From positions 1,431 through 65,430 of the forward strand of contig JACQXY010000010.1 of the NCBI GenBank assembly GCA_016208485.1: a DNA stretch of 64,000 bases. Direction: 5' to 3'. A model generated the notes under the pieces. That model was not told where the DNA came from. It searched no databases and worked only from the letters and a program-made list of their open reading frames with translations. Positions 1 to 22,012 of this stretch are shown here, piece after piece. The DNA comes from Acidobacteriota bacterium (lineage in GTDB: Bacteria; Actinomycetota; AC-67). Each line of letters starts with the position of its first letter. The stretch's first letter is position 1. The translations under genes and the position numbers were made by a program.

Positions 1-411
1 GCCGCGCGCGCGAAGCGCCAGCGCGGCGAGTCCGGCCCCCAGGATCGCCCAGAGCGGCAGGAGGACCAGGTGCCGCCCGACGAGGACGCCCCCGAGGCGC
101 CGGTCGCGCAGCGGCTCGAAGACCCGCCCGTAGGAGAAGAACAGCGTCACCGCGATCGAGACGACGAGCGCCGCGCGCCGAAGGTCGCGCAGGATCGACC
201 AGGCCGCGAGGAGCAGCACGGCGGCGGCGACGACCGAGGCCGCGAGCGGCACGCGCACCTGCTCGAAGGTCACCTCGCCGAGGTTGGCGGCGAAGAGCGA
301 GAGCACCGGGAATGCGGCGAGGAGCAAGGGGTGGACGGCCCCCCAGGGGCGCGCGCCGAGCCTCCCGGCTGCGCGTCCGGGCTCCGGCGGTGTTTCCCTT
401 GGATCGGTCAT
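1..411 (-). CDS. Membrane protein, N-terminal part only (gene runs off the left edge of the window). Translation MTDPRETPPE...LLLAAFPVLSLFAANLGEVTFEQVRVPLAASVVAAAVLLLAAWSIL is multi-TM.
   Basis: Minus-strand ATG at 411-409 overlaps the stop of the upstream methyltransferase gene (ATGA). Hydrophobic helices and protein-like composition. It is missing from the ORF track because no stop falls inside the window. Confidence 0.45.
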   Translation of the reverse strand, partial: MTDPRETPPEPGRAAGRLGARPWGAVHPLLLAAFPVLSLFAANLGEVTFEQVRVPLAASVVAAAVLLLAAWSILRDLRRAALVVSIAVTLFFSYGRVFEPLRDRRLGGVLVGRHLVLLPLWAILGAGLAALALRARG

Positions 412-1772
412 CTCATGAGGTAGAGGATACGCTCGGATCCCGCGATCGGCTCCGTCCGCTCGATCCGGAACACCTCGGAGAACGCGGCCTCGAAGCCGTC
501 GCGCGCGTACCGGGGGAAGACGTCCTCGCGCGTCGCGAGCATCCGGCGCACCTGCGGGTCTCCCTTCGGCACGCACTCGATCACGAGACTGCGAGCGAGC
601 GCGCGCAGGTGCCGGGCGATGCGCACGAGCGGCACGTTGTTCCCGATCGCCAGATGGTGCACCAGCGCGAGCGCGAGCGCGAGATCGGCCGGACCGCGGT
701 CGGCGAGCGACGCGCGCTCGCCGTTCTCCCACCCGATCCGAGGGCTCGGGTTGGCGAGATCCTGCACGAGGGGGAGGAGGTTCCGCTCGCCCTTCTCGCG
801 CACGGCGCGCCACGAGGCCTCGACGCAACCGGGGTCCATCTCCAGGGACACGGTTCGCACGCCGCGCTGCGAGCCGAGGCGGCTGTAGAGGCCTGTGTTG
901 GCGCCGAGGTCCCACATGGTCCGCGGGGCGACCTCCTCGATCATCGTCGAGACGAGCGCTTTCTTGTGCTCGAGCGCCTCGGGTGTGTAGCTCTCCTCAT
1001 CCGAGTAGTAGGACGTCCACACGGTCCGATCGGGCTCCCAGGTGAGCTTGGTCGTCGCGCGCGCGAGCCCGGCGACGATCGCGCGGAGGGCGTTCGCGGA
1101 CACCCCGCGCCGCTGCCGGTCCCCCAGCTCCCGGTCCTGGTACCTCCGCTGGCTCTTCGCGTGCGCGTGGATGTGAAGCAGCAGGGAGGTGCGCTTCGTC
1201 TTGCGCGGCAGAAGCGCGGCGGCGAGGTCGACCGGCACGCCGTCGATGTGGACTCGCAAGAGCTGCCCGAGCCGGACGTCCCGGTATGCCATGAGCGCGA
1301 GCGGCGCGAGGAAGTGCTGGCAGTACTGGCGGTAGGCGACCCACGGCCGCCCTTCCGGGAGGCGCTCGAACGAGAGCGTGTCGATTGACAGCGGGCGACC
1401 GTCCACGAACTGGATGTTGTAGGCGGAGGCGTCGCGCATCGACATGCCGTGCTCCATGGCGCGCTGCTGGATGCGCAGGGTTGCGAGCGCCGCGTCCTTG
1501 AGCTGCGAGAAGCACCACTCGTACGGGTAGGAGACGAAGGGGATCTCCCGCGGCCGGAGGATCTTGTAGGCGCCCGGCGCGGCCGGCGGCTCGGCGCTCT
1601 CCTCGTGCGGGACGAGCAGGCCGTCGGAGACGAGCGACTCGTAGAGCCCCGAGGCCATGAAGAGATCGTAGTGCTCGCGGAAGGACTCGTTCACCTGGCG
1701 GTGGAGGACGCCGTCCCGCCGGAAGACGAACCCGCTCGGGTCTCGGAAAGACCCCCCGACGACCTCGGTCAC
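408..1772 (-). CDS. Class I SAM-dependent methyltransferase with a large N-terminal domain of unknown function
   Basis: 454-aa ORF. Glycine-rich motif I (MWDLGANTGLYSRL) sits in the C-terminal third with a downstream acidic residue, the typical Rossmann MTase layout. Translationally coupled to the flanking membrane-protein genes. Confidence 0.6.
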   Translation of the reverse strand: MTEVVGGSFRDPSGFVFRRDGVLHRQVNESFREHYDLFMASGLYESLVSDGLLVPHEESAEPPAAPGAYKILRPREIPFVSYPYEWCFSQLKDAALATLRIQQRAMEHGMSMRDASAYNIQFVDGRPLSIDTLSFERLPEGRPWVAYRQYCQHFLAPLALMAYRDVRLGQLLRVHIDGVPVDLAAALLPRKTKRTSLLLHIHAHAKSQRRYQDRELGDRQRRGVSANALRAIVAGLARATTKLTWEPDRTVWTSYYSDEESYTPEALEHKKALVSTMIEEVAPRTMWDLGANTGLYSRLGSQRGVRTVSLEMDPGCVEASWRAVREKGERNLLPLVQDLANPSPRIGWENGERASLADRGPADLALALALVHHLAIGNNVPLVRIARHLRALARSLVIECVPKGDPQVRRMLATREDVFPRYARDGFEAAFSEVFRIERTEPIAGSERILYLMR

Positions 1773-1776
1773 CGCG

Positions 1777-2034
1777 CTACGCCGAGGGAGGCGCGCCTTC
1801 CGGGGCCCGCTCCTCGGACTTCCTGCGGCCGCCCCGAAGGAAGGCGAAGATGCGCCGCCAGAAGGCGCCGACCGTGAGCAGCAACCCGCCGATCAGGCCC
1901 GCCACCACCTGGATCATGTAGCTCCCGGTGCCCGGATCCACGTAGGCGTGGGCCGGTCTGACCGTGGCGATGGTCCAGCCGAGGGTCAGGGCAAGAACGA
2001 GGGTCGCGGTCGAGCATCGGATGAGCTGTCTCAT
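1777..2034 (-). CDS. Small membrane protein (85 aa, 2 predicted TM helices)
   Basis: Hydrophobic segments LVLALTLGWTIATV and IQVVAGLIGGLLLTVGAFW. Sits 5 nt upstream of the methyltransferase on the same strand. Confidence 0.4.
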   Translation of the reverse strand: MRQLIRCSTATLVLALTLGWTIATVRPAHAYVDPGTGSYMIQVVAGLIGGLLLTVGAFWRRIFAFLRGGRRKSEERAPEGAPPSA

Positions 2035-2276
2035 ATCTGCCGCATCGTAGCACCCGAACGGCTGAGGGGGAGAGCGCGCGGACCGGGCGCCCCGCGCCGG
2101 CCGGCGCGCACCCCAGCCTCTCGCGAAACCGACGCGTTTGGTCGGGAAGCGGGTTCCGATCGAGTATGTGGGGGTCCGGACGGACCGCCGCGCGCGCTGT
2201 CGGCACCGTGTCCGTCGAAGAGGCCCTGGGGCCGATGCCGCGCAGCGGCACCCCCCGGGCCGAGAGGGGGTCCGAC

Positions 2277-3209
2277 ATGAAGATCACCGTCATCGGGGCC
2301 GGGAAGTACGGCTCGACGACCGTTCAGCGTCTCGCCGAGATGGGGATCGCGAGCGAGGTCGTCATGACCGACATCATCGAGGGTCTGCCGCAAGGGCTCG
2401 CGCTCGACATGATGCAGAGCCGCTCGATCGAGGGGTTCGAGACCCGGATCGTCGGCACCAACACATACGAGGACACCGCCGGCACCGACGTCTGCATCGT
2501 GACGGCCGGCCTGCCTCGCAAGCCAGGCATGAGCCGGATGGACCTGCTCGACGTCAACTCCAAGATCATCCGCGATGTGGCCGAGCGCTTCTGCCCCGGC
2601 TCTCCCGGCGCGGTCGTGATCGTGGTCACCAACCCGCTCGACGAGATGACGCACCTCTTCCGCGAGGTGTCGGGCTTTCGGCACGACAGGGTGATCGGCC
2701 AGGCGGGCATGCTCGACACCGCGCGCTTCAAGCACTTCGTCGGCGAGGAGCTGGGCGTGTCCCCGATCGAGGTCGAGGCGATGACCCTCGGCTCTCACGG
2801 CGACACCATGGTTCCTGTGCCCTCGCTCGTGCGCGTGTCCGGCAAGCCGCTCACCGAGCTCGCCGACGCCGAGACCATCGAGCGGGTCACCAAGCGAACC
2901 CGCGACGGAGGCGCCGAGATCGTCGGACTCCTCAAGACCGGGAGCGCCTACTACGCGCCGTCATCGGCGGCGGCGGCCATGGCGCGCGCCGTCCTCACGG
3001 ACTCCAAGGAGATGATGCCGGTCTGCGCCTGGCTCACCGGCCAGTACGGCATCGACGGGGTATACCTCGGGGTCCCGGCGAGGCTCGGGCGCGTCGGGGT
3101 GGCCGAGGTCGTGGAGCTGCCCCTCGCCGAGTCCGAGCTGGTAGCGCTCCGCGCGGCGGCCGAGGCCGTCCGCTCGAAGTGCGCCGACCTCGGCAAGCTC
3201 GGCGGGTAG
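2277..3209 (+). CDS. mdh: Malate dehydrogenase (LDH-like MDH family)
   Basis: MKITVIGAGKYGST NAD-binding Rossmann motif, IVTAGLPRKPGMSR(M)DLL substrate loop, and catalytic-His region LGSHGDTMVP. Start refined to the internal ATG at 2277 inside the longer 2166 ORF. Confidence 0.9.
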   Translation: MKITVIGAGKYGSTTVQRLAEMGIASEVVMTDIIEGLPQGLALDMMQSRSIEGFETRIVGTNTYEDTAGTDVCIVTAGLPRKPGMSRMDLLDVNSKIIRDVAERFCPGSPGAVVIVVTNPLDEMTHLFREVSGFRHDRVIGQAGMLDTARFKHFVGEELGVSPIEVEAMTLGSHGDTMVPVPSLVRVSGKPLTELADAETIERVTKRTRDGGAEIVGLLKTGSAYYAPSSAAAAMARAVLTDSKEMMPVCAWLTGQYGIDGVYLGVPARLGRVGVAEVVELPLAESELVALRAAAEAVRSKCADLGKLGG

Positions 3210-3317
3210 CGCGCGGTTCGAGGCCCGACCCGGCAGCCGGGCGTTTCTCGCCATTCCCCGCGGGCGCTTGCGCGGCGCGGTTCACTTCCGCCTGGTCCGA
3301 GCCGATATCAGGGGGGT

Positions 3318-8242: not shown

Positions 8243-9160
8243 GTGCCGGCCGTGGCGCGCGTCCTCTCGGGCATCCAGCCCTCCGGCGAGGTTCACCTCG
8301 GCAACTACATCGGCGCTCTGCGCCACTGGGTCGCCGACCAGGACCGGAACGACTGTTTCTACGTGGTCGTCGACCTTCACGCGATCACCGTCCCCCAGGA
8401 GCCCGAGGCGCTTCGGGCCGCGACCCTCGACCTCGCGGCGATCCTGCTCGCAGTCGGGATCGACCCCGAGCGCTCGACGCTTTTCGTCCAGTCCCACGTC
8501 CACGAGCACGCGGAACTCGCCTGGGTGCTCGGCTGTTTCGCGATGTTCGGTGAGCTGCGGCGCATGACCCAGTTCAAGGACAAGGCCCACCGCCAGCGGG
8601 AAGCGTCGGTCTCGGTCGGACTGTTCTCCTACCCGGTGCTGCAGGCAGCCGACATCCTGATCTACCAGGCCGACCGAGTGCCGGTGGGGGAGGATCAGCG
8701 CCAGCACCTCGAGCTGACGCGCGACGTCGCGCAACGCTTCAACGGCCGCTTCGGCGAGACCTTCGTTGTGCCGGAGGCGGCGATCCCCCCGGTCGGCGCG
8801 CGGATCATGGACCTTCAGAACCCGACCGCGAAGATGTCGAAGTCGGCCGACTCGCCCCAGGGCACGATCCGGGTGACCGATCCGCCCGACGTGCTCGCCC
8901 GCAAGATCAAGACCGCCGTGACCGAGATCCCCGACCTCGAGGAGGCGTACGCCGGCAAGGGGTACGCGGACCTGAAGCGCGATCTCGCCGAGGCGCTGGT
9001 TGAGTTCCTGCGCCCGCTGCAGGAGCGCTACCGGGATCTCGCGACCGACCCCGGCGAGATCGCGCGCCTGCTCGAGGTCGGGGCGGCCAAGGCGCAGGCC
9101 GTGGCGTCGAAGACGCTCGCCGCGGTCTACGAGCGGGTCGGTTTCCTGCCGCGCGGCTGA
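8243..9160 (+). CDS. trpS: Tryptophanyl-tRNA synthetase
   Basis: Class I aaRS HIGH-like motif ([13 protein letters not shown]) and a KMSKS motif. Length 305 aa is typical. Confidence 0.9.
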
Positions 9161-9916: not shown

Positions 9917-11137
9917 ATGGACTCGAGTTTGACGGCTTTGGCGGCGATCGCCGTCGTTGCCGTCGTCGCGGCGGTGTGGCTCGATCGGCGCCGCCGCCGG
10001 GCGGAGGTCTTGGTGCGGCAACGCCACCTCGATGAGACCTGCGAGCGCGAGGCCGCCGAGCGCCTCCGGGATCTCGACCGCATGAAGAGCGAGTTCCTTC
10101 AGACGGTCTCCCATGAGCTGCGCACGCCGCTCACGGTCATCCTCGGGATCGCCGACACCCTCGAACGCGGTGACCTCGACGCCTCAACCGAGACCATGAG
10201 AGATCTCGTGGCGAGGATCGCCGCCAACGCCCGGCGGCTCGATCGGCTGATGGCCGACGTGCTGGACCTGGACCGGCTCGCGCGCGGGACGCTCCAAGTT
10301 CGCCGGCGTCCCACGCGAATGGACGCTCTGCTGTCCACCGTGCTCGCGGCCGTCGATCTGGGCGGGCGTCCGGTCTCGGCCGAGGGCGCCTCGGTGGTCG
10401 CGTTGGTGGACCCCGCTCAGGTGGAGCGGATCGTGGAGAACCTCCTCGTGAACGCGGCCAAGCACACCCCCGCGGGCACTCCCGTGTGGGTGCGGGTGGA
10501 GGAGGAGAGCGAGGGAGTGCTCCTCACGGTGGAGGATGCGGGGCCGGGGGTGCCCGACGAGCTGAAGGAGGCGATCTTCGAACCGTTCCGCCGGAGCGCC
10601 GCGGATGCGCCTGGGACCGGGATCGGGCTCTCGCTCGTCGCGCGCCTCGCCGAGCTGCACGGCGGCCGGGCCTGGGTGCAGGATCGCCCCGGCGGCGGGG
10701 CCTCGTTCCGCGTGTCCCTGCCGGGCTGGCCCCGGCGGGAGCACCGCGCGCGCGTCCTGGTCGTTGATTGGGATGGCTCGGTCGACTGGGCGGAGGCGGA
10801 GATCCTGCGCCGCGCGGGGTACGACGTGGCCATCTGCGGAGGTCCCGCGCACCCCTGGGCGGCCTCCACCTGCCCTCTCGTCGAGCGCGGCCGCTGCGCG
10901 CTCGTGAGCGGCGCCGATGCCGTGGCGTTCGGGCTCACCCACCCGACCCCCGAGGCGATCGAGGTGGCGCGCGCCTACCGCGGGCACGCGCCGGGCACGC
11001 CGATGGTCCTGGAGGTGCCGGCGGCGGAAACGGCTCGCTACGGCCGGCTCTTCGAGGGGTGCGACGTGGTGGCCGCGCCGGTGACGGCCGATCGGATGGT
11101 CGGCCTGCTCGGCGAGATGCTGGCGCGGAGCCGTTGA
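9917..11137 (+). CDS. Sensor histidine kinase with an N-terminal TM helix, HisKA and HATPase_c domains, plus a C-terminal Cys-containing receiver-like extension
   Basis: H-box FLQTVSHELRTPLT, N-box LLVNAAKHT, and G-boxes EDAGPGVP and GTGIGLSLV. C-terminal RVLVVDWDGS...AICGGPAHPWAASTCPLVERGRCALV is receiver-like but lacks the canonical DD pair. Confidence 0.8.
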   Translation: MDSSLTALAAIAVVAVVAAVWLDRRRRRAEVLVRQRHLDETCEREAAERLRDLDRMKSEFLQTVSHELRTPLTVILGIADTLERGDLDASTETMRDLVARIAANARRLDRLMADVLDLDRLARGTLQVRRRPTRMDALLSTVLAAVDLGGRPVSAEGASVVALVDPAQVERIVENLLVNAAKHTPAGTPVWVRVEEESEGVLLTVEDAGPGVPDELKEAIFEPFRRSAADAPGTGIGLSLVARLAELHGGRAWVQDRPGGGASFRVSLPGWPRREHRARVLVVDWDGSVDWAEAEILRRAGYDVAICGGPAHPWAASTCPLVERGRCALVSGADAVAFGLTHPTPEAIEVARAYRGHAPGTPMVLEVPAAETARYGRLFEGCDVVAAPVTADRMVGLLGEMLARSR

Positions 11138-15146: not shown

Positions 15147-16302
15147 CTACTCGCTCTCGAATTGATGGCTGCCGAACTTCAACGTTCGACTGTTCTCGGT
15201 CACGGTGCGGACGATCTGATCCGAGGCGCCATCCGGGAGCAACGCCTCGATCTCGAGGGTGACCGTGACCTCCGCGCCCACCTGACCGACCAAGTGCGCG
15301 ACTACCTCGTCGGCGATGCGGCTCGCGTCGCGCCCGACGCGCGCGGGATCGAGCCGGACGGTTCCGTGGAACCGGTGAGGCAGCGGCGCAACCGCCGCAT
15401 CAGGCGCCGCGTCCGTCGCCTGAGTGGGCTTGGCGCCGGAGGAGGCGGCGGGAGGCGCTCCGGTACCGGGCTCGCCGTTCGGGATCGCCGCCGGTGTTTC
15501 CGCGTCCATCTGCCTCCGGGCCACCTCCGGCTTCACCAGCAGCCCGGCGCCGTCCGCCGTGAGCATCACCACCTGCCCGCCGCGCAAGCCGCGATAGCGG
15601 CCGGCGCCCTCGTCGTAGCTCTCGGCGTACGCGAACGTCTCCGACTGCCACGTGAGGAGCGCCATGCCGTCGCGGGCCGCCTGTGCCAGCACCTCGGGCC
15701 GGGCGAGGCGTGGCAGGTAGAGGTAGCGCGCGAAGTCCTCGACGAGCTGGCGGATCGCGACATCGTCGCCGCGCCACAGCGGCACATCGTCCAGGTGCTT
15801 GCGCAGGACGGTCGAGCCGAGCAAGGAGAGCAGCAACCGCGCGCGGGTGGTCGGCGTTCTCGGCGCACGCGCGCCGCCAGCTCTGCCAGATCTCATCGCG
15901 CGCGGCCTGCAGGACGGTCTCGTTGGTGGTGTTCTCCCACTGCACGAGGTCCTCGATCAGCTTGAACAGGCGTTTGCGCTCCTTCTCCTGGGCCTTCTCG
16001 GTCGGGAACAGATCTGGGTACGACGACGGGTCGTCCACCATCTGCGAGAAGATCACCGCGCGCGCGGCCGCCAGCGGCCGCCGGGCCCACCACAGGTGCA
16101 GCGTCGAGGGATGCCCACGCCGGATGGACTTCTCGCGCGCCGACGCCTTGTTGATCGCCTCCAAGGGCAACGCGACTTCGATGAGTTTCTTCTTCGTGGT
16201 CACGTTGTCCCCCCGCATCGGATGATCACTCCCGCCGCCCGGATGAAACTCGGATGGTTTCCCGCGCGCCGAGGGGCCGCCGGGATCGGATGACCTCGTC
16301 AT
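15147..16302 (-). pseudogene. Internally deleted defence-gene remnant: the N-terminal about 140 aa of a DUF1156-family DNA methyltransferase fused out of frame to the C-terminal about 230 aa of a DUF499-like ATPase
   Basis: Frame 1 (16302 to about 15880) contains [49 protein letters not shown], the DUF1156 signature. Frame 2 (15896 to 15147) contains [34 protein letters not shown]...TVTENSRTLKFGSHQFESE, a DUF499-like C-terminus. The ATG at 16302 overlaps the stop of the upstream gene (ATGA). Confidence 0.6.
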
Positions 16303-17480
16303 ACGGCTCCCCCGCCCTTCCCTGGTTTACGATTACGGCGATCGACTTGACGATTGGTTGACGATTCGGCCGTTCCCTTGAGGCGATAGCGGGTCGATCG
16401 GCCTGCCCCCACCCTCTCGGCCAGGCCCAGCTCGACGAGCTTCCCGAAGTCGCTGGAGGTGATCGTACGGGTGACGCCGAACTCCGCTTCGCACTGCCTG
16501 CTCGTAAGCTCTTCGCCCTCGACCAGCTGGAGCATCATCCTGCGCTGGCGTTCGCTCAGTTGCGCTTCCACGGCAGGGGTCACCAGGAGCCGGCTCTCGG
16601 GCGCGCGCAGGCGGTCGATGTCCTCGCCCGGTCCCGGGAAGGTGACCTGGAAGTATCCGGTGTCGGTGCCGATCAGCGGCCTGTCCAGCCCGTGATCGAG
16701 CATCTGGTCGGTCATGCGGCGGAAGCCGCTGCCGCGCTCCTCGATACGATGAAAGTAGGACAGGCACTGCGCGAGGACCGGGTTGCGCGAGCAGGGGCGG
16801 TACTTGCCCTTGCGGAGGTTGGCGAGCGTGATGGGCGCGGGCGGCAGGCCGGGGCTCGAGACGACCACCCGGTCGGCGAACACCTCGAGAAGGATCTTGC
16901 GGCCGGCATCCTCGTACTGGCGGTGCGCCACCGCGTTCACCAGCGCCTCGCGCAGGCCATCGACGGGATACTCGTCGAGCCGCACCCGGTTCAGGCCCAC
17001 GATCCTCATCGGGTGCCGAGTGTTGCGGTCGATGAAGGCAATTGCGCGGTCGATCGCGAGCGGCATCGGCGCCCGGACGTCCTCGTGGTCGCGCGGGTCG
17101 CCGTCGGGCCCGGCGCCCCGGTAGGCGTCGGCCAGAATGCGGCACTGGGGAAACACCGCTGAGGGATCCTTGGCCAGGAGCACGATCCCGGCTGCGGTGG
17201 CATAGTGCTCGCCCGAGGCGGGCTCATGCCAGACGAGACCGCGCAACGCGGCGCCCGCCAGGAGATCCTCCTCGGAGATGTCCGCCCCTTCGCGCCCCTC
17301 GGCGGCGGCAAGCAGCCGGCGAACCACGTCGTGGTCGAGGTCCTGCCAGCGGATCCGGTCGAGGGAGCGGGACTCGAAGGGGGACGTGGCCTCGATGGTC
17401 TGGCGGGCGATCTCGTTCTCGTCGCTGGTGGGAGCGATGCCGAAGCGATCCAAGAACAGCTTCACCAGCGCGGCGCGCAC
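16299..17480 (-). CDS. HATPase_c_4 (divergent ATPase-like) protein with a C-terminal winged-helix domain, lacking the usual AlbA_2 N-terminus
   Basis: [39 protein letters not shown] motif of HATPase_c_4 family transcription-regulator-like proteins. C-terminal w[32 protein letters not shown] start immediately after the DUF4062 gene stop. Confidence 0.65.
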
Positions 17481-17486
17481 TTCCCT

Positions 17487-17905
17487 CTAGAGTTCGATGA
17501 CGTTGCCGAAGCGCTTGTACTTGGGCCCGTCTGCGTCGAGTTCGGCCAGCAGGGCGACCGTTCCTGCTTCGCGCTTGACGTGCCGCTCGCCCCGGATGAA
17601 GGCGAGCACGGGGAGTCCCTTGGCCTTCGCGTGGCGATACTCGGCGTGGGGGTGATGGATAGCTCGCCGACCGGCGTGCCGTACTCGACGCCCACGATCA
17701 ACAGGTAGACCTGGCAGGCGTCGAGGGCTTCGAAGCAGCCCGCCAGGGCCTTGCTCGGGGACGCCGGCTCGTACTCGTAGAGTACCGGCGTGCAGTGCGC
17801 CGACAGAAAGGAATCGGTGTTCAGCAGGTTCTGGACGATGAGCCGCTCGTCCTCGAGTTCCTTCTGCGCGGAGCTGACGAACACGCGGAGCTTCGCGGTC
17901 ATCAC
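17487..17905 (-). pseudogene. DUF4062-domain protein gene, apparently frameshifted in a G5 homopolymer (17648-17652)
   Basis: The first about 77 codons (MTAKLRVFVSSAQKELEDERLIVQNLL...VYLLIVGVEYGTP) match DUF4062. The rest of the protein (HAEYRHAKAKGLPVLAFIRGERHVKREAGTVALLAELDADGPKYKRFGNVIEL) continues in another frame after the run gtggggg. Confidence 0.5.
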
Positions 17906-17985
17906 TTGGCGTCCGCCCGCGCGGCCGCCTCGTCGATCGCCTCCAGGGGCAACGCGACCTCGATCAGTTTCTTGCGAATGGTCAT
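17905..17985 (-). pseudogene. 27-codon stub of a second DUF1156-type methyltransferase gene ([27 protein letters not shown]-stop)
   Basis: Diverged copy of the [14 protein letters not shown]-terminus. Its ATG overlaps the ParA-like gene stop (ATGA). It is truncated where the DUF4062 gene begins. Confidence 0.4.
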
Positions 17986-18968
17986 GGCAACGTCGCTCGC
18001 GCTTGCTTGGCGACCTCGATCGCGAGGGTGCGGAAGTCTCGACGGCAGTCCTGGACGGCCTGGGCGTGACCGCCGATCGCTCCGTCTGCGGGTTTGAGGA
18101 GGAACATCGGCTTGCGCGCTTCCTGAGCGAGGGGCATCAGGCTCCGGTAGTGCTTCAGGGTGGACAAGCAGTGAGGATCCCGGGCGATGGTGACGTCTGC
18201 CTGGGGGATCGCCTCCCCCAGGACCGCCTCCCGGTAGACGCCCGGGATCCTCGCCATCCACTTCCCGTAGGCCTTCACCGGTCGATCGAGGCGGACGGCA
18301 TGCTGCATCACGACGTAGCCAAGCGGCTCCATCCGGCCATCCGGCAGGTCCAACTCCGCCGGGCGCTTCTTGAGTCGCTCCTCCCATCCGCTGCGCCACT
18401 CCCGCAAGCGTGGCCCGAGATTCTGGAGGCCCTTGAGGGAGAACAGATCCGGAGCGAGGGGGATGGCTACGTGGTCGGCGGCGATCAGGGCCGCGCGGTT
18501 GATCGCACCGAGATTCGGGCCGACGTCGATCAGGACGATGTCTGCCTCGCGCAGTTGCGCCGCGCGCGCAAGGATCTGGTGGAAAGCTCCGATCACTCGG
18601 AAAGCCCGGGTCTTGCCCTCGAGGCAGTACGGCCACTGCTGGCTCAGCTCGTCCTCGAATCCCGAGAGCGCGAGATCCCCGGCCAGAAGCCCGATGCCGG
18701 CGATGTCCTCGACATGCGGATCGGCGATCCCGCCCTTGCCTTCCAGAAGCGGGAGCAACGGCCCGAGGATGGTTCTGCCCGGCATCCCGTTCGGCCAGAG
18801 CGATTCGAGCGCATCCTCATCCAGGAACATAGTTGTGAGATTGGCCTGCGGGTCGAGATCCGCCGCGAGCACAGAGAGGCCGAGTTCGGTGTACATCCAG
18901 GCCAGGTGGTAGACGAGCGAGGTCTTTCCGATGCCGCCCTTGTTGTTGAAGAACGCAACCGCCTTCAA
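17982..18968 (-). CDS. ParA/MinD-like P-loop ATPase (deviant Walker A)
   Basis: KAVAFFNNKGGIGKTSLVYHLA Walker A KGGxGKT; 328 aa. Coupled (ATGA) to both the upstream AlbA_2 gene and the downstream DUF1156 stub. Confidence 0.8.
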   Translation of the reverse strand: MKAVAFFNNKGGIGKTSLVYHLAWMYTELGLSVLAADLDPQANLTTMFLDEDALESLWPNGMPGRTILGPLLPLLEGKGGIADPHVEDIAGIGLLAGDLALSGFEDELSQQWPYCLEGKTRAFRVIGAFHQILARAAQLREADIVLIDVGPNLGAINRAALIAADHVAIPLAPDLFSLKGLQNLGPRLREWRSGWEERLKKRPAELDLPDGRMEPLGYVVMQHAVRLDRPVKAYGKWMARIPGVYREAVLGEAIPQADVTIARDPHCLSTLKHYRSLMPLAQEARKPMFLLKPADGAIGGHAQAVQDCRRDFRTLAIEVAKQARATLP

Positions 18969-20156
18969 GGGGCTGACCTCACGGTGACGGCGACGAGCGT
19001 GGGCTCAAACCCAAACTCGGGCGGTGGGTTGCCGTTGTCGGCAAGAGCCTGTCGCGCCAGCGGAATTCCGAGACCGAAGCGCTGCGCAAAGCCTAGGTTG
19101 TACATGATCTCGGCTACGAGCGGGTTGCGGTAGTCGGTAACCCCCGCGCCGAAGTTCTGCGGCGTAACCTGGCCGTACAAGCTCCCGGGACTCTGGAACT
19201 CGATCCGTTCGGTGTACCAGTAGATCCGAGCCGGCGCGTTGGTGGATTCGTAGGCCCGATGCATGACCGCGTTGCGCGCGAGTTGTTGAAGGGCGGGAAG
19301 CGGATAGTCGGGCCGGCGGATCTCGCGCGGTCCCGAGGTCACCTCGGTGCGCACGGAGACGTTGATTTCCAGGAGATCGTCTAGCCGTCGCAGCACGTCC
19401 TCGAGCCGTCCGGTAAGGGTCTTCTGGTCTCGGATGGGGTCGGTTAGCGAGGATCCAGCGATGCGCAGGAACTGCACATAGGCCCCGGGCACCCAGCTTT
19501 GCGGATCACGACCCAAGCCGAGCATCGCACCGTAGGTGGGTGCATCGCCGGTCGTCAGACGCAGCGACCGGAGCTGCTGCTCGGTAGGGCGCTGGTTCTC
19601 CTCGAGGACATCGATGGCGATGGCGCGCGGCAGGTACTGTGTGCGGGCGTAGTCAAGATCGAGATCGTTGAGCGCTGCGCCCGACACCGGCCGCAGGTCA
19701 AAGGGAAGGTCGCGCGCGCGCCGGCGCTCGGCGAGCCTGATCTCTTCTTCGGGCGTAGCAAGGCGCACGGTGGGGCCGACTCTTGCCCAGACCCGCCCTT
19801 GATAGCGCACGGGGGGATAGGAACTCGGATGAACCGTCACGACGGCTACGTCGCAGCCGTCCATTGTGCGTTTCTCGATGTGCAGAGAGGGAAGAGGCAG
19901 GATGTTGCCGTCGTCGCGCATCGCGGCCAGATCGCGCAGGAGTTGATCCCCAATTTCCAAGGAAGCGCACCGGCCGTCGTCCTCGACGCCGATCAGGATG
20001 ATGCCCGGCCGGCCCCGGCCGGCGAGGTCGTTCGCGAATGCGCAGATGTTTCGGCGGATGCCGCTCCGGTCGGCAGCGGACCGTTTGCGCTCGACGAGCT
20101 CCGACTCGACCTCAAGACACATCCGGCGCAGCTCGTCGTCGCTGTATACGCTCATG
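18965..20156 (-). CDS. AlbA_2 (Schlafen-like) plus HATPase_c_4 domain protein, a putative nucleic-acid sensor/regulator
   Basis: N-terminal MSVYSDDELRRMCLEVESELVERKRS...IILIGVEDDG matches AlbA_2. C-terminal LQQLARNAVMHRAYESTNAPARIYWYTERIEFQSPGSL matches HATPase_c_4. Start refined to the ATG at 20156. Confidence 0.7.
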
Positions 20157-20377
20157 CTGGGTATCCTTTCACAACCGCCGCTTTCGCACGTGCGGCGGTT
20201 CCGCTGATCGCCTCGAGCGGCAGGGTGCCTTCGGTGAGGTTCTTCCCATCCGGCATCAGGCGATGCCCCCCTCCCAAGTCCGGTCAAGCGGCTGCAAGGA
20301 GTCGCAGATTGCCCAGGAACTGCGCGCGGGTGCAATCCTCCGTGCAATCCCGGGACGCCCCCCTCTAGCGGCCATAC

Positions 20378-22012
20378 TCATCGTGGATTCCCCGCTCGTT
20401 CGAGCAGCTTGGCGAAATCGTAGTTGACGCTGGTCACACCGAAGTCGGGCTCGCGCTGGAAGGGGCGCCGCAGGTAACGCACGCGGTGGGTGTCGCCATT
20501 CAGGAACTCGACCAGAGCGAGGATGAAGTCGTCCGGTTTGTTGAGGCTGGTGAGGATCTCGTTCTTGGTCACCGTGACGGTGTCCGCGCCGGACACCCGG
20601 CCCTTCACCTCGATGAACCGCAACTTGCCGGTGCCGGGGGCGCGGCTCTCGACGTCGTAGCCGAGTCTCTCGAATTCGCGGTCGGTCGGCTCGAAGCCCA
20701 GGCCGCGCTCAATCTCCATCACGATCTCTCTCGCGCGCGCGGCGCTCGCCTGGGTGTCGGTGGGACTCGCGGGCCCGGCGGGCGCGCGACCGGTCATGGC
20801 GGCGACCAGCCCGATCGGCACGACCAGCAGACCGCCCAGCACCACCGGGGGCAGCGCCGAGATCTGGGCCTCTCGATCCAGCTCCGCGAGGCGCCTCTCG
20901 AGCCGGGCCTGCATCTCGTCGGCGCGGCGGCGTGCCTCCTGGGAGTTGAGCCGCGCGCCGGCCCTGCCGGCTTGTTCCTGGAGCTTGAGCTGCTCGGCGC
21001 GGTGGTCCCAGTAGGTGATCTCCTTGGTCAGTCGGTCCATCACGGCGGCGCGGGTCTTCTCGATCCACGCAAGGCGCCGGCCGCGCACCTCGGCGATGTG
21101 CTCGGGCACGACGTGCTCGATGGCGTGGCCCTGCGCCTTCTGCTCCAGCGCGCGTGTGATCCAGGCGCACTCGGGGCGGGCAAGGAGGTTGACCACCGGT
21201 GGCTCATCCTCGGCAAGTGGGCGGTAGTCGAGATACGGCGCGTAGTACGGGTGGCGCGTGCGCCCCGCGGCGTCCATCTCGACGTGGAGCATCCGCCGCG
21301 AGATCGTGCGGCGCTCGCCGGAGGGGAGAACGCTCGCATCCTGGATGGCGTGTTCGAGGAAGAGGAGCACGCGCGGGCTCGTGCCCGGGTCGCGCTCGTC
21401 TACCAGCACGGTGCCGCGCTTCAGGAGATCGCGGTGACGCTCGAGCGTGAGGTCGAGCACCGCGTCGAGCAGCGGGTGGCCGGGGCAGACGAAGGCCGCC
21501 AGAGGCTGACCCGGCGGCGCGATTAGGTCCTTCTCGAAGGTGATGCGCTCGTAGCGCGCGAGCACCGGATCGCCGGCGCCGATCTGGCGGTCACGGCTCC
21601 GGACCGGCGCGGGCACGTGGGTGATCTCGTAGCGACGCGGCTCGCGCTGGCGAACGGTGCCGCCGAGGCGACGGAAGGCCTCGAGGAAGAACGACTCGAT
21701 GTAGTGTGGCTGCAAGCGCCGCGCCTCGGCGCGCTCCATGTCCTCGCGCACGCGCGCGACGCGCCTGGAGTCCATCGCGTCGTGTGCGAGCGCCCGGTCC
21801 TCGATGAGTCCCTGCAGGTGCGCCCGGTCCACACGTGGTTCGTCGTGCCGGTAGAGGATCTCATCGGCCACGCGACCGTTCGGCCCGCGGTACACCAGGG
21901 TCAGGGCGTCCGAGCCGTGCCACTCGACGCCGACGACGGTGACTGCCGCATCCGGCAAGATGCCCCGGAGGGTCGCGTCGGGTTGGAGGTCCTCGAGCCT
22001 CAGCAAGGGCAC
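20378..22012 (-). pseudogene. C-terminal half of a defence-type helicase-related protein ending in a DUF3883 domain; the helicase core is absent
   Basis: C-terminus GLGFEPTDREFERLGYDVESRAPGTGKLRFIEVKGRVSGADTVTVTKNEILTSLNKPDDFILALVEF matches DUF3883. Only 219 nt of non-coding DNA separate it from the divergent mutase gene, so no N-terminal ATPase region can be present. Confidence 0.5.

Follow-up and report, generated by a model that had tools for sequence, protein, structure and literature searches.

The 64,000-nucleotide stretch analyzed here (contig JACQXY010000010.1 of assembly GCA_016208485.1, from an Acidobacteriota bacterium; "the window" below) carries two overlapping genes. The first encodes a Schlafen-type protein with AlbA_2 and HATPase_c_4 (GHKL) domains, and the second encodes a ParA-like ATPase. 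We found that the Schlafen-GHKL gene and the ParA-like gene form a fixed, widespread and obligate two-gene unit. We consider it probable that this pair is an autonomous two-gene abortive-infection (anti-phage) module, often nested in the Hma system and lying here in a decayed Hma locus. The two genes are the following:

18965..20155, minus strand: Schlafen-GHKL ("Schlatpase") gene, 396 amino acids (Pfam, motifs, AlphaFold2 model)
17982..18968, minus strand: ParA/Soj-like ATPase gene, 328 amino acids, TTG start (Pfam, AlphaFold2 model, motifs)

The original prediction read these genes as encoding an AlbA_2/HATPase_c_4 protein and a ParA-like ATPase. Both open reading frames (ORFs) are present on the minus strand, and Pfam agrees with both domain calls. 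The start of the Schlafen-GHKL gene had been placed at 20156; its ATG occupies 20155..20153. An ATGA coupling between the two genes had also been described. The 4-nucleotide overlap and the translational coupling are there, but the overlap reads TTGA, because the TTG start of the ParA-like gene at 18968 overlaps the TGA stop of the Schlafen-GHKL gene. At the other end of the pair, the ParA-like gene had been said to be coupled to a DUF1156 stub, and here the stop and the start do overlap as ATGA (17985..17982).

The ParA-like family is large. Its homologs gave at least 585 matches in species-representative genomes and fell into 538 clusters at 50% identity (E ≤ 1e-30). Homologs that are 58 to 90% identical occur across Acidobacteriota, Pseudomonadota, Planctomycetota, Chloroflexota, Cyanobacteriota, Myxococcota and other phyla. 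We analyzed the 80 best loci from species-representative genomes and, independently, 80 loci from metagenomes. An AlbA_2/HATPase_c_4 gene lay immediately upstream of the ParA-like gene in all 77 genome loci that could be evaluated (those with upstream DNA) and in 74 of the 75 evaluable metagenome loci. In both sets together, the two genes adjoin in 151 of 152 evaluable loci, a pairing far above chance level. The reverse check gave the same picture, with a ParA-like gene following the AlbA homolog in 3 of 3 loci. Of 153 loci, 143 have an NTGA in which the stop of the first gene and the start of the second overlap (ATGA in 119, GTGA in 18 and TTGA in 6). The sole exception to the pairing, locus L161 (positions 1-3289), has an hmaA fragment, a ParA-like gene and hmaB, without an AlbA gene in the approximately 1 kb between.

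All-versus-all clustering of the ORFs in the 80 genome loci revealed no third recurrent gene and no ParB; besides the pair itself, only HmaA, HmaB, HmaC and antisense artifacts recurred. Among 93 immediate neighbors in the loci without Hma genes, no family appeared in more than three cases and no Pfam family in more than two, and the neighbors that could be identified were mostly housekeeping genes. A minority were defense genes, namely mad3 and mad8 of the MADS system, ThsB and methyltransferases. Among loci L006-L084, mad8 adjoins an isolated pair in three loci and mad3 does so in two, and therefore the pair may sit embedded in MADS systems too. We found no description of a Schlafen-GHKL/ParA pair in PADLOC, in NCBIfam or in the literature searched.

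In the 396-residue Schlafen-GHKL protein, Pfam placed SLFN_AlbA_2 (PF04326) at residues 17-132 (E = 7.6e-14) and HATPase_c_4 (PF13749) at residues 308-391 (E = 3.8e-16), and the Pfam scan returned no HEPN family. A variable middle domain separates the nuclease and ATPase domains. The catalytic motif Ex4(E/D)xK is present as E17-SELV-E22-R-K24. Across 38 sequences, E17 and E22 never vary and K24 is conserved in more than 90%; all three are invariant among 43 close homologs. The residues N295, H299 and R300 of the GHKL N-box are likewise invariant in homologs, and the SPG motif and DYRNP are conserved. The chain stops right behind the GHKL domain, without the C-terminal winged helix-turn-helix (wHTH) of the "HisKinase-HTH" Schlafens. 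The AlphaFold2 (AF2) model has a pLDDT score of 84.5, and its top matches in the PDB are 3LMM (DIP2311), SLFN11/SLFN14 and the GHKL domain of PDK. The predicted GHKL fold matches the PDK and histidine-kinase CA domains.

Prokaryotic Schlafens (pSlfns) are phage-activated anti-phage tRNases with the Ex4(E/D)xK motif (Perez Taboada et al., Nat Microbiol 2026, PMC13056530). The combination of SLFN with the PF13749 GHKL domain ("HisKinase") is the commonest pSlfn architecture and accounts for 34% of pSlfns (PMC13056530). This SLFN+GHKL supradomain has been named "Schlatpase," and in SLFN-pAgo the binding of ATP by GHKL drives tetramerization into the active nuclease (bioRxiv 10.64898/2026.05.29.728809). 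The window protein resembles the pSlfn and Schlatpase proteins in having SLFN_AlbA_2, an Ex4ExK motif, a PF13749 GHKL domain and a fold like that of SLFN11 and 3LMM. However, the described pSlfns are treated as single-gene systems with fused domains as sensors, whereas the window gene has no helix-turn-helix (HTH) and is invariably coupled to a ParA-like gene. The pSlfn and Schlatpase papers do not mention a separate ParA-like partner.

In the 328-residue ParA-like protein, Pfam identified AAA_31/CbiA (E = 5.8e-25), with the deviant Walker A motif NNKGGIGKT. Walker A residues G11, G12, G14 and T16 are invariant, as are D37/D39 and D148, and K10 and K15 are at least 90% conserved. The C-terminal region is strongly conserved and specific to the family. 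The AF2 model (pLDDT 92.4) is a confident ParA/Soj fold. The closest solved relative is 3PG5 (sequence E = 6.6e-29, Foldseek E = 2e-17), followed by Soj, ParA and McdA. With ParA, Soj, McdA and the orphan 3PG5 (DIP2308 of Corynebacterium diphtheriae), the protein shares its fold, the deviant Walker A motif and a predicted ATP-sandwich dimer. Unlike partition ATPases, it has no ParB partner and no plasmid or origin context, and it carries the extra conserved C-terminal region. The top solved relatives of the two window proteins, 3PG5 (DIP2308) and 3LMM (DIP2311), are both orphan structural-genomics targets from C. diphtheriae, and their locus tags are only three apart.

All NCBIfam partition models scored the ParA-like protein far under their cutoffs (ParA_partition gave 60.9 bits against a cutoff of 180). 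A tblastn search of the 72,556 plasmids in PLSDB returned no relative above about 32% identity; the best matches, at about 31%, lie in unrelated contexts. The same search of the 50,697 phages in INPHARED returned no relative. A plasmid-partition reading of the protein was rejected on these PLSDB and INPHARED results. The original prediction had allowed that the subfamily might occur only in plasmid partition contexts; it was never found with ParB or in a partition setting.

The pair has a recurrent but minority association with Hma. HmaA (helicase), HmaB (DUF1156 methylase) and HmaC (DUF499 ATPase) make up what PADLOC calls the Hma system (Payne et al., bioRxiv 10.1101/2024.01.29.577857), which has been re-described as a Type-1 DUF499-centered BREX-related system (Rakesh & Krishnan, NAR 2026, PMC12839542). 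Hma commonly harbors embedded, independent defense systems (Payne et al., bioRxiv 10.1101/2024.01.29.577857), and Schlafen-GHKL-wHTH proteins are often auxiliary to BREX and BREX-related loci (PMC12839542). As the original prediction supposed, the occurrence of this ParA subfamily directly upstream of DUF1156 genes does recur: an hmaB start or stub follows the ParA-like gene in about 30 of about 165 loci. One of these is in Rohdeia mirabilis Pla163, where the pair is intact (CP036290, about 286.9-289.1 kb; L001 8796-10981). Where hmaB is present in these loci, stubs included, it begins a few nucleotides from the ParA stop. However, an Hma gene lies within 10 kb of the pair in only 23 of the 80 genome loci (about 71% are without), and hmaB lies within 4 kb downstream in only 8 of the 48 metagenome loci whose downstream sequence extends for at least 1 kb (83% are without). 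Most non-Hma loci contain no hmaB trace detectable with a hidden Markov model (HMM) of the HmaB N terminus. With these counts, the pair is not a constant core component of Hma.

The near-constant adjacency of the AlbA gene, set against the minority presence of Hma, argues that the ParA-like protein is the partner of the Schlafen protein and not of DUF1156. The original prediction suggested that it may be an accessory or partition-like part of a restriction-modification (RM)-like or BREX-like system. Because the pair occurs mostly without Hma genes and among housekeeping neighbors, we conclude instead that the ParA-like gene is bound to the Schlafen-GHKL gene.

Intact Hma loci (such as L001 and L003) read HmaA-AlbA-ParA-HmaB-(AAA_15, DUF4276)-HmaC. 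Other cassettes are found in the same loci. Positions 4437-8657 of L003, between hmaA and the pair, encode a 1,406-residue protein with a faint SACS match. Between hmaB and hmaC, L001 (14008-15752) and L003 (14700-18584) hold cassettes of AAA_15/AAA_21 with DUF4276 and of AAA_15 with DUF3696. Like Hma-embedded systems, the cassettes in the window are co-oriented within the Hma locus, and the logic of independent modules is the same "guilt by embedding." Since the pair is found mostly without Hma, as in the pattern of Payne et al., it behaves as an independent Hma-embedded system. Unlike the Hma-embedded candidates (HEC-01 to HEC-09 and the PDCs), it fits none of their models: no HEC or PDC profile matched the pair, apart from a 38-residue P-loop match of the ParA-like protein to PDC-M28B (E = 8.6e-5). 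Among the PADLOC profiles, the AlbA protein matches only the pAgo-associated Schlafen models.

In the window, the Schlafen-GHKL/ParA pair is the only part of the Hma locus that retains full-length ORFs. The locus is a single co-oriented gene row on the minus strand, in DNA of about 70% GC, running from the hmaA remnant (22012) to the hmaC fragment (15147). Around the pair, the row consists of the following:

20378..22012, minus strand: hmaA remnant, SNF2 helicase with C-terminal DUF3883/NOV_C nuclease, 544 amino acids (PADLOC, Pfam, blastn)
20152..20256, minus strand: degenerate hmaB (DUF1156) 5' stub ORF, 34 amino acids (copy of repeat D1, HmaB N-terminus HMM)
17902..17985, minus strand: hmaB (DUF1156) 5' stub, 27 amino acids (direct reading, repeat D1, tblastn, HMM)
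16299..17905, minus strand: second embedded cassette, a DUF4062 + HATPase_c_4 + HTH pseudogene (Pfam, translation)
15835..16206, minus strand: hmaB (DUF1156 methyltransferase) N-terminal fragment, about 125 amino acids (Pfam, PADLOC)
15147..15836, minus strand: hmaC (DUF499 ATPase) C-terminal fragment, about 230 amino acids (PADLOC)

The PADLOC HmaA model matched the 544-residue protein strongly (9e-173), with the match confined to the first 60 or so residues and to profile positions 691-1172, and Pfam detected the NOV_C domain. A blastn comparison with the intact locus L005 (Vicinamibacterales) revealed that the segment corresponding to L005 2200-4156 is absent from the window hmaA. The reading frame stays open despite this loss of about 1.96 kb, which encodes the SNF2 helicase core, and the N-terminal 57 or so residues of HmaA are fused in frame to the C-terminal inactive restriction endonuclease/DUF3883 part. 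The hmaB fragment was recognized by Pfam (DUF1156, 1.8e-31) and by PADLOC (HmaB, 1.4e-60), the latter over profile positions 4-131 of 967 only. The hmaC fragment matched PADLOC HmaC (4.6e-43) over profile positions 710-940 of 941. A deletion joins the N-terminal fragment of hmaB to the C-terminal fragment of hmaC.

The protein of the second cassette contains DUF4062, HATPase_c_4, DIP2311-like_C and HTH_5 domains by Pfam. Its gene is broken by a frameshift near 17650 and by an in-frame TAG at 17489-17487. This protein carries a DIP2311-like/ArsR HTH and has no AlbA_2 domain.

The window thus holds no intact set of HmaA, HmaB and HmaC; HmaA is without its helicase core, and HmaB and HmaC are fragments. 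Unlike an Hma system, all of its Hma genes are truncated, and the pair is mostly found without such genes. Given the truncated hmaA, hmaB and hmaC and the DUF4062 pseudogene, we read the locus as a decayed Hma system. The original prediction missed this wrecked state. The same arrangement recurs in a second sample (L173), including the 34-residue gene call before the AlbA gene, and a 100% identical record of the window Schlafen-GHKL protein exists from an Acidobacteria metagenome-assembled genome. Promoter and terminator scans of 17300-20500 gave nothing; such scans are uninformative for an acidobacterial genome of 70% GC.

The remains of hmaB suggest how cassettes might move. In the window, the hmaB 5' end is present three times as a direct repeat (D1), at 16125-16202, 17907-17984 and 20178-20255 on the minus strand, and the HMM agrees with these assignments. 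Each copy marks the edge of a cassette, and translational coupling links it to the gene that follows. The 34-residue stub (20256..20152) translates as MPDGKNLTEGTLPLEAISGTAARAKAAVVKGYPA and ends at a TGA stop that overlaps the AlbA ATG as ATGA. The 27-residue stub is a remnant of the DUF1156 (HmaB) N terminus, and its stop codon and the start codon of the DUF4062 gene overlap. Its D1 copy is 78% identical to the longer hmaB fragment. A stub before the AlbA gene is also present in L031 and in L064 (3070-3201), and in L031 the pair is bracketed by two hmaB 5' copies (8644-8790 and 10996-11082). Stub-only remnants of hmaB follow the ParA-like gene in L051, L129, L151 and L162. Therefore, some of the apparently solitary pairs descend from Hma loci. 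The stub copies that flank cassettes in the window and in other loci suggest that cassettes may enter Hma loci, or move between them, through recombination at the conserved 5' end of hmaB. Payne et al. (bioRxiv 10.1101/2024.01.29.577857) did not discuss a mechanism of cassette acquisition, and the stub-flanked layout would physically explain how Hma systems gather embedded defense genes.

The two genes of the pair differ in conservation. Mean identity is 65% for the ParA-like protein and 53% for the AlbA protein, in which the middle domain is the lowest, and the two identity matrices are weakly correlated (r = 0.36). Between the window and L005, DNA identity is 0.45-0.67 across the AlbA gene and 0.84-0.94 from the ParA start onward. 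Because identity jumps exactly at the AlbA/ParA boundary, the AlbA gene must have been exchanged as a unit in the window lineage. We also considered a breakpoint inside the AlbA gene near residue 286, with co-inheritance of the GHKL domain and ParA, from a blastn block at 19297..17924. This breakpoint was rejected on the basis of per-domain and sliding-window identities.

Relatives of the ParA-like protein combine with several putative effectors. P0257 (731 amino acids) combines AlbA_2, HATPase_c_4 and ParA in a single polypeptide with a short linker. P0341 (690 amino acids), a candidate for a second Schlafen-ParA fusion, was rejected as a frameshift artifact, because its middle region is out of frame. 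P0326 (545 amino acids) is a ParA-like protein of the same clade with a C-terminal RES toxin domain, and P0252 (595 amino acids) is a ParA-like protein whose C-terminal region has the PD-(D/E)xK-like motif DYVV...EYAIEVK. The 3PG5-like branch shares 31% identity with the window ParA over the full length, C-terminal motif included. In this branch, a SIR2_2 gene follows the ParA-like gene in Cellulomonas sp. FA1 (L169 6001-7898, with a 4-nucleotide overlap) and in Paeniglutamicibacter (L168 6001-7892). These SIR2_2 genes match the ThsA, Dsr and LmuA SIR2 models, and in a Corynebacterium a ParA gene of this branch lies within a defense island. The 3PG5/DIP2308 branch may therefore hold a predicted two-gene defense module of ParA and SIR2.

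The closest precedent for the pair is an in silico prediction from 2013, in which dyads of HEPN proteins (the MAE_18760 family, some of them Schlafen-fused) and ParA/Soj proteins were predicted to be toxin-antitoxin systems (Anantharaman et al., Biol Direct 2013, PMC3710099). Like those dyads, the pair consists of two genes, for an RNase-type effector and for an ATPase similar to ParA/Soj, of the kind proposed to control the effector. Unlike them, its effector is a Schlafen+GHKL protein, without HEPN by Pfam. We found no experimental follow-up of the HEPN-ParA/Soj prediction in the literature.

By the same logic, the pair could be a toxin-antitoxin or addiction module, with the Schlafen RNase as toxin and the ParA-like protein as an antitoxin that acts by nucleotide-dependent binding or by phosphorylation. 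The tight translational coupling would fit such a module, as would the solitary copies amid housekeeping genes. So would the intact pair in the window, since an addictive module would persist in this way while the neighboring Hma genes decay. However, the gene in the upstream position is the putative toxin gene, not the antitoxin gene, and the fusions of Schlafen-GHKL with ParA and of ParA with RES look more like sensor-effector proteins than like labile antitoxins. The family is also absent from the 72,556 plasmids, the usual place where addiction modules are enriched. We consider this explanation unlikely, although it and an abortive-infection function are not mutually exclusive.

We give still less weight to the idea, close to that of the original prediction, that the pair is an accessory or regulator of Hma/DUF1156 itself, made up of a transcriptional regulator and a DNA-scanning or positioning ATPase. 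Its position speaks for such a role: when Hma is present, the pair always lies between hmaA and hmaB, with hmaB only a few nucleotides past the ParA stop, and hmaB 5' stubs persist at several isolated pairs. Public records also call the Schlafen-GHKL proteins "transcriptional regulator," the usual database label for AlbA_2/HATPase_c_4 proteins. However, most pairs occur apart from Hma: about 71% of genome loci contain no Hma gene at a distance of up to 10 kb, and 83% of evaluable metagenome loci have no hmaB within 4 kb downstream. The subfamily has no HTH domain, the catalytic residues of its nuclease vary little or not at all, and the published core of the Type-1 BREX-related system consists of the ATPase, methyltransferase and helicase only (PMC12839542). 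In addition, relatives of the ParA-like protein are associated with SIR2 or RES effectors in settings other than Hma. A role as Hma accessory is thus improbable.

That the ParA-like protein is a genuine partition ATPase of a mobile element, with the Schlafen-GHKL protein as an unconventional centromere-binding partner, is very improbable: the ParA/Soj fold with intact ATPase motifs and the public label "chromosome partitioning protein" would suit it, but there is no ParB or other recurrent third gene, the gene order is opposite to that of parAB operons, the loci are chromosomal on Mb-scale contigs, no close relative occurs in the plasmids or phages searched (the best plasmid matches are about 31% identical and in other contexts), and every NCBIfam partition model falls far below its cutoff.

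We therefore return to the autonomous abortive-infection module. The hallmark of sensor/switch-effector defense systems is a conserved NTPase that works with effectors that are interchangeable or diversify. Because the ParA-like family shows this combination, we infer that the ParA-like protein of the pair is the ATP-dependent switch that controls the Schlafen-GHKL effector. We propose that the Schlafen-GHKL and ParA-type proteins would form a complex, in which the ParA-type ATPase would serve as a nucleotide-dependent, probably DNA-associated, switch or sensor. It would restrain the Schlafen-GHKL effector, which infection would release or activate. ATP-driven oligomerization of the GHKL domain would then assemble the active Schlafen nuclease, and this nuclease would cut tRNA or other RNA, so that the infection is aborted. 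In this proposal, the module is autonomous, but it is frequently nested within the Hma operon, directly upstream of hmaB.

Several points weigh against this explanation. Most non-Hma copies lie among housekeeping genes, outside recognizable defense islands, and no PADLOC model recognizes the pair. In a Schlafen screen, robust protection came only from the DUF262 fusion and from RorSlfn5, an Ig-like fusion (PMC13056530), which means that the HisKinase-type constructs tested gave none. Table S8 of Payne et al. lists a cassette CAS_00077 (FAM_00002>>FAM_01381) with 252 instances that carries the label "Reject." The first of its two families, FAM_00002, corresponds to AlbA_2/HATPase_c_4, and the second, FAM_01381, may be this ParA; CAS_00077 may be the Schlafen-GHKL/ParA pair, judged not to be a defense system. 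The conservation of the ParA-like protein, 58 to 90% identity across phyla, is unusually high for a sensor. Defense, RNA cleavage and a physical complex are predictions from sequence for this subfamily. Finally, the ParA-like protein may equally well be a restraint on the effector, as an antitoxin would be, or its activator.

That Schlafen nucleases act as antiviral effectors in bacteria is a recent finding. To our knowledge, the Schlafen+GHKL combination, the commonest bacterial architecture, is still without a known trigger or regulator. The pair suggests a concrete partner for it, the ParA-type ATPase, and a testable model of its control. More tentatively, this clade of ParA/Soj-fold (SIMIBI-class) proteins might be an unrecognized class of defense NTPase switch with interchangeable effectors, of which Schlafen-ParA would be the most abundant member. 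The effectors may include the Schlafen-GHKL RNase, a SIR2 NADase and RES, and possibly HEPN or PD-(D/E)xK nucleases. If this is true, ParA-fold switches would be a new NTPase class in prokaryotic immunity, beside the STAND, ABC, KAP and AAA+ sensors.

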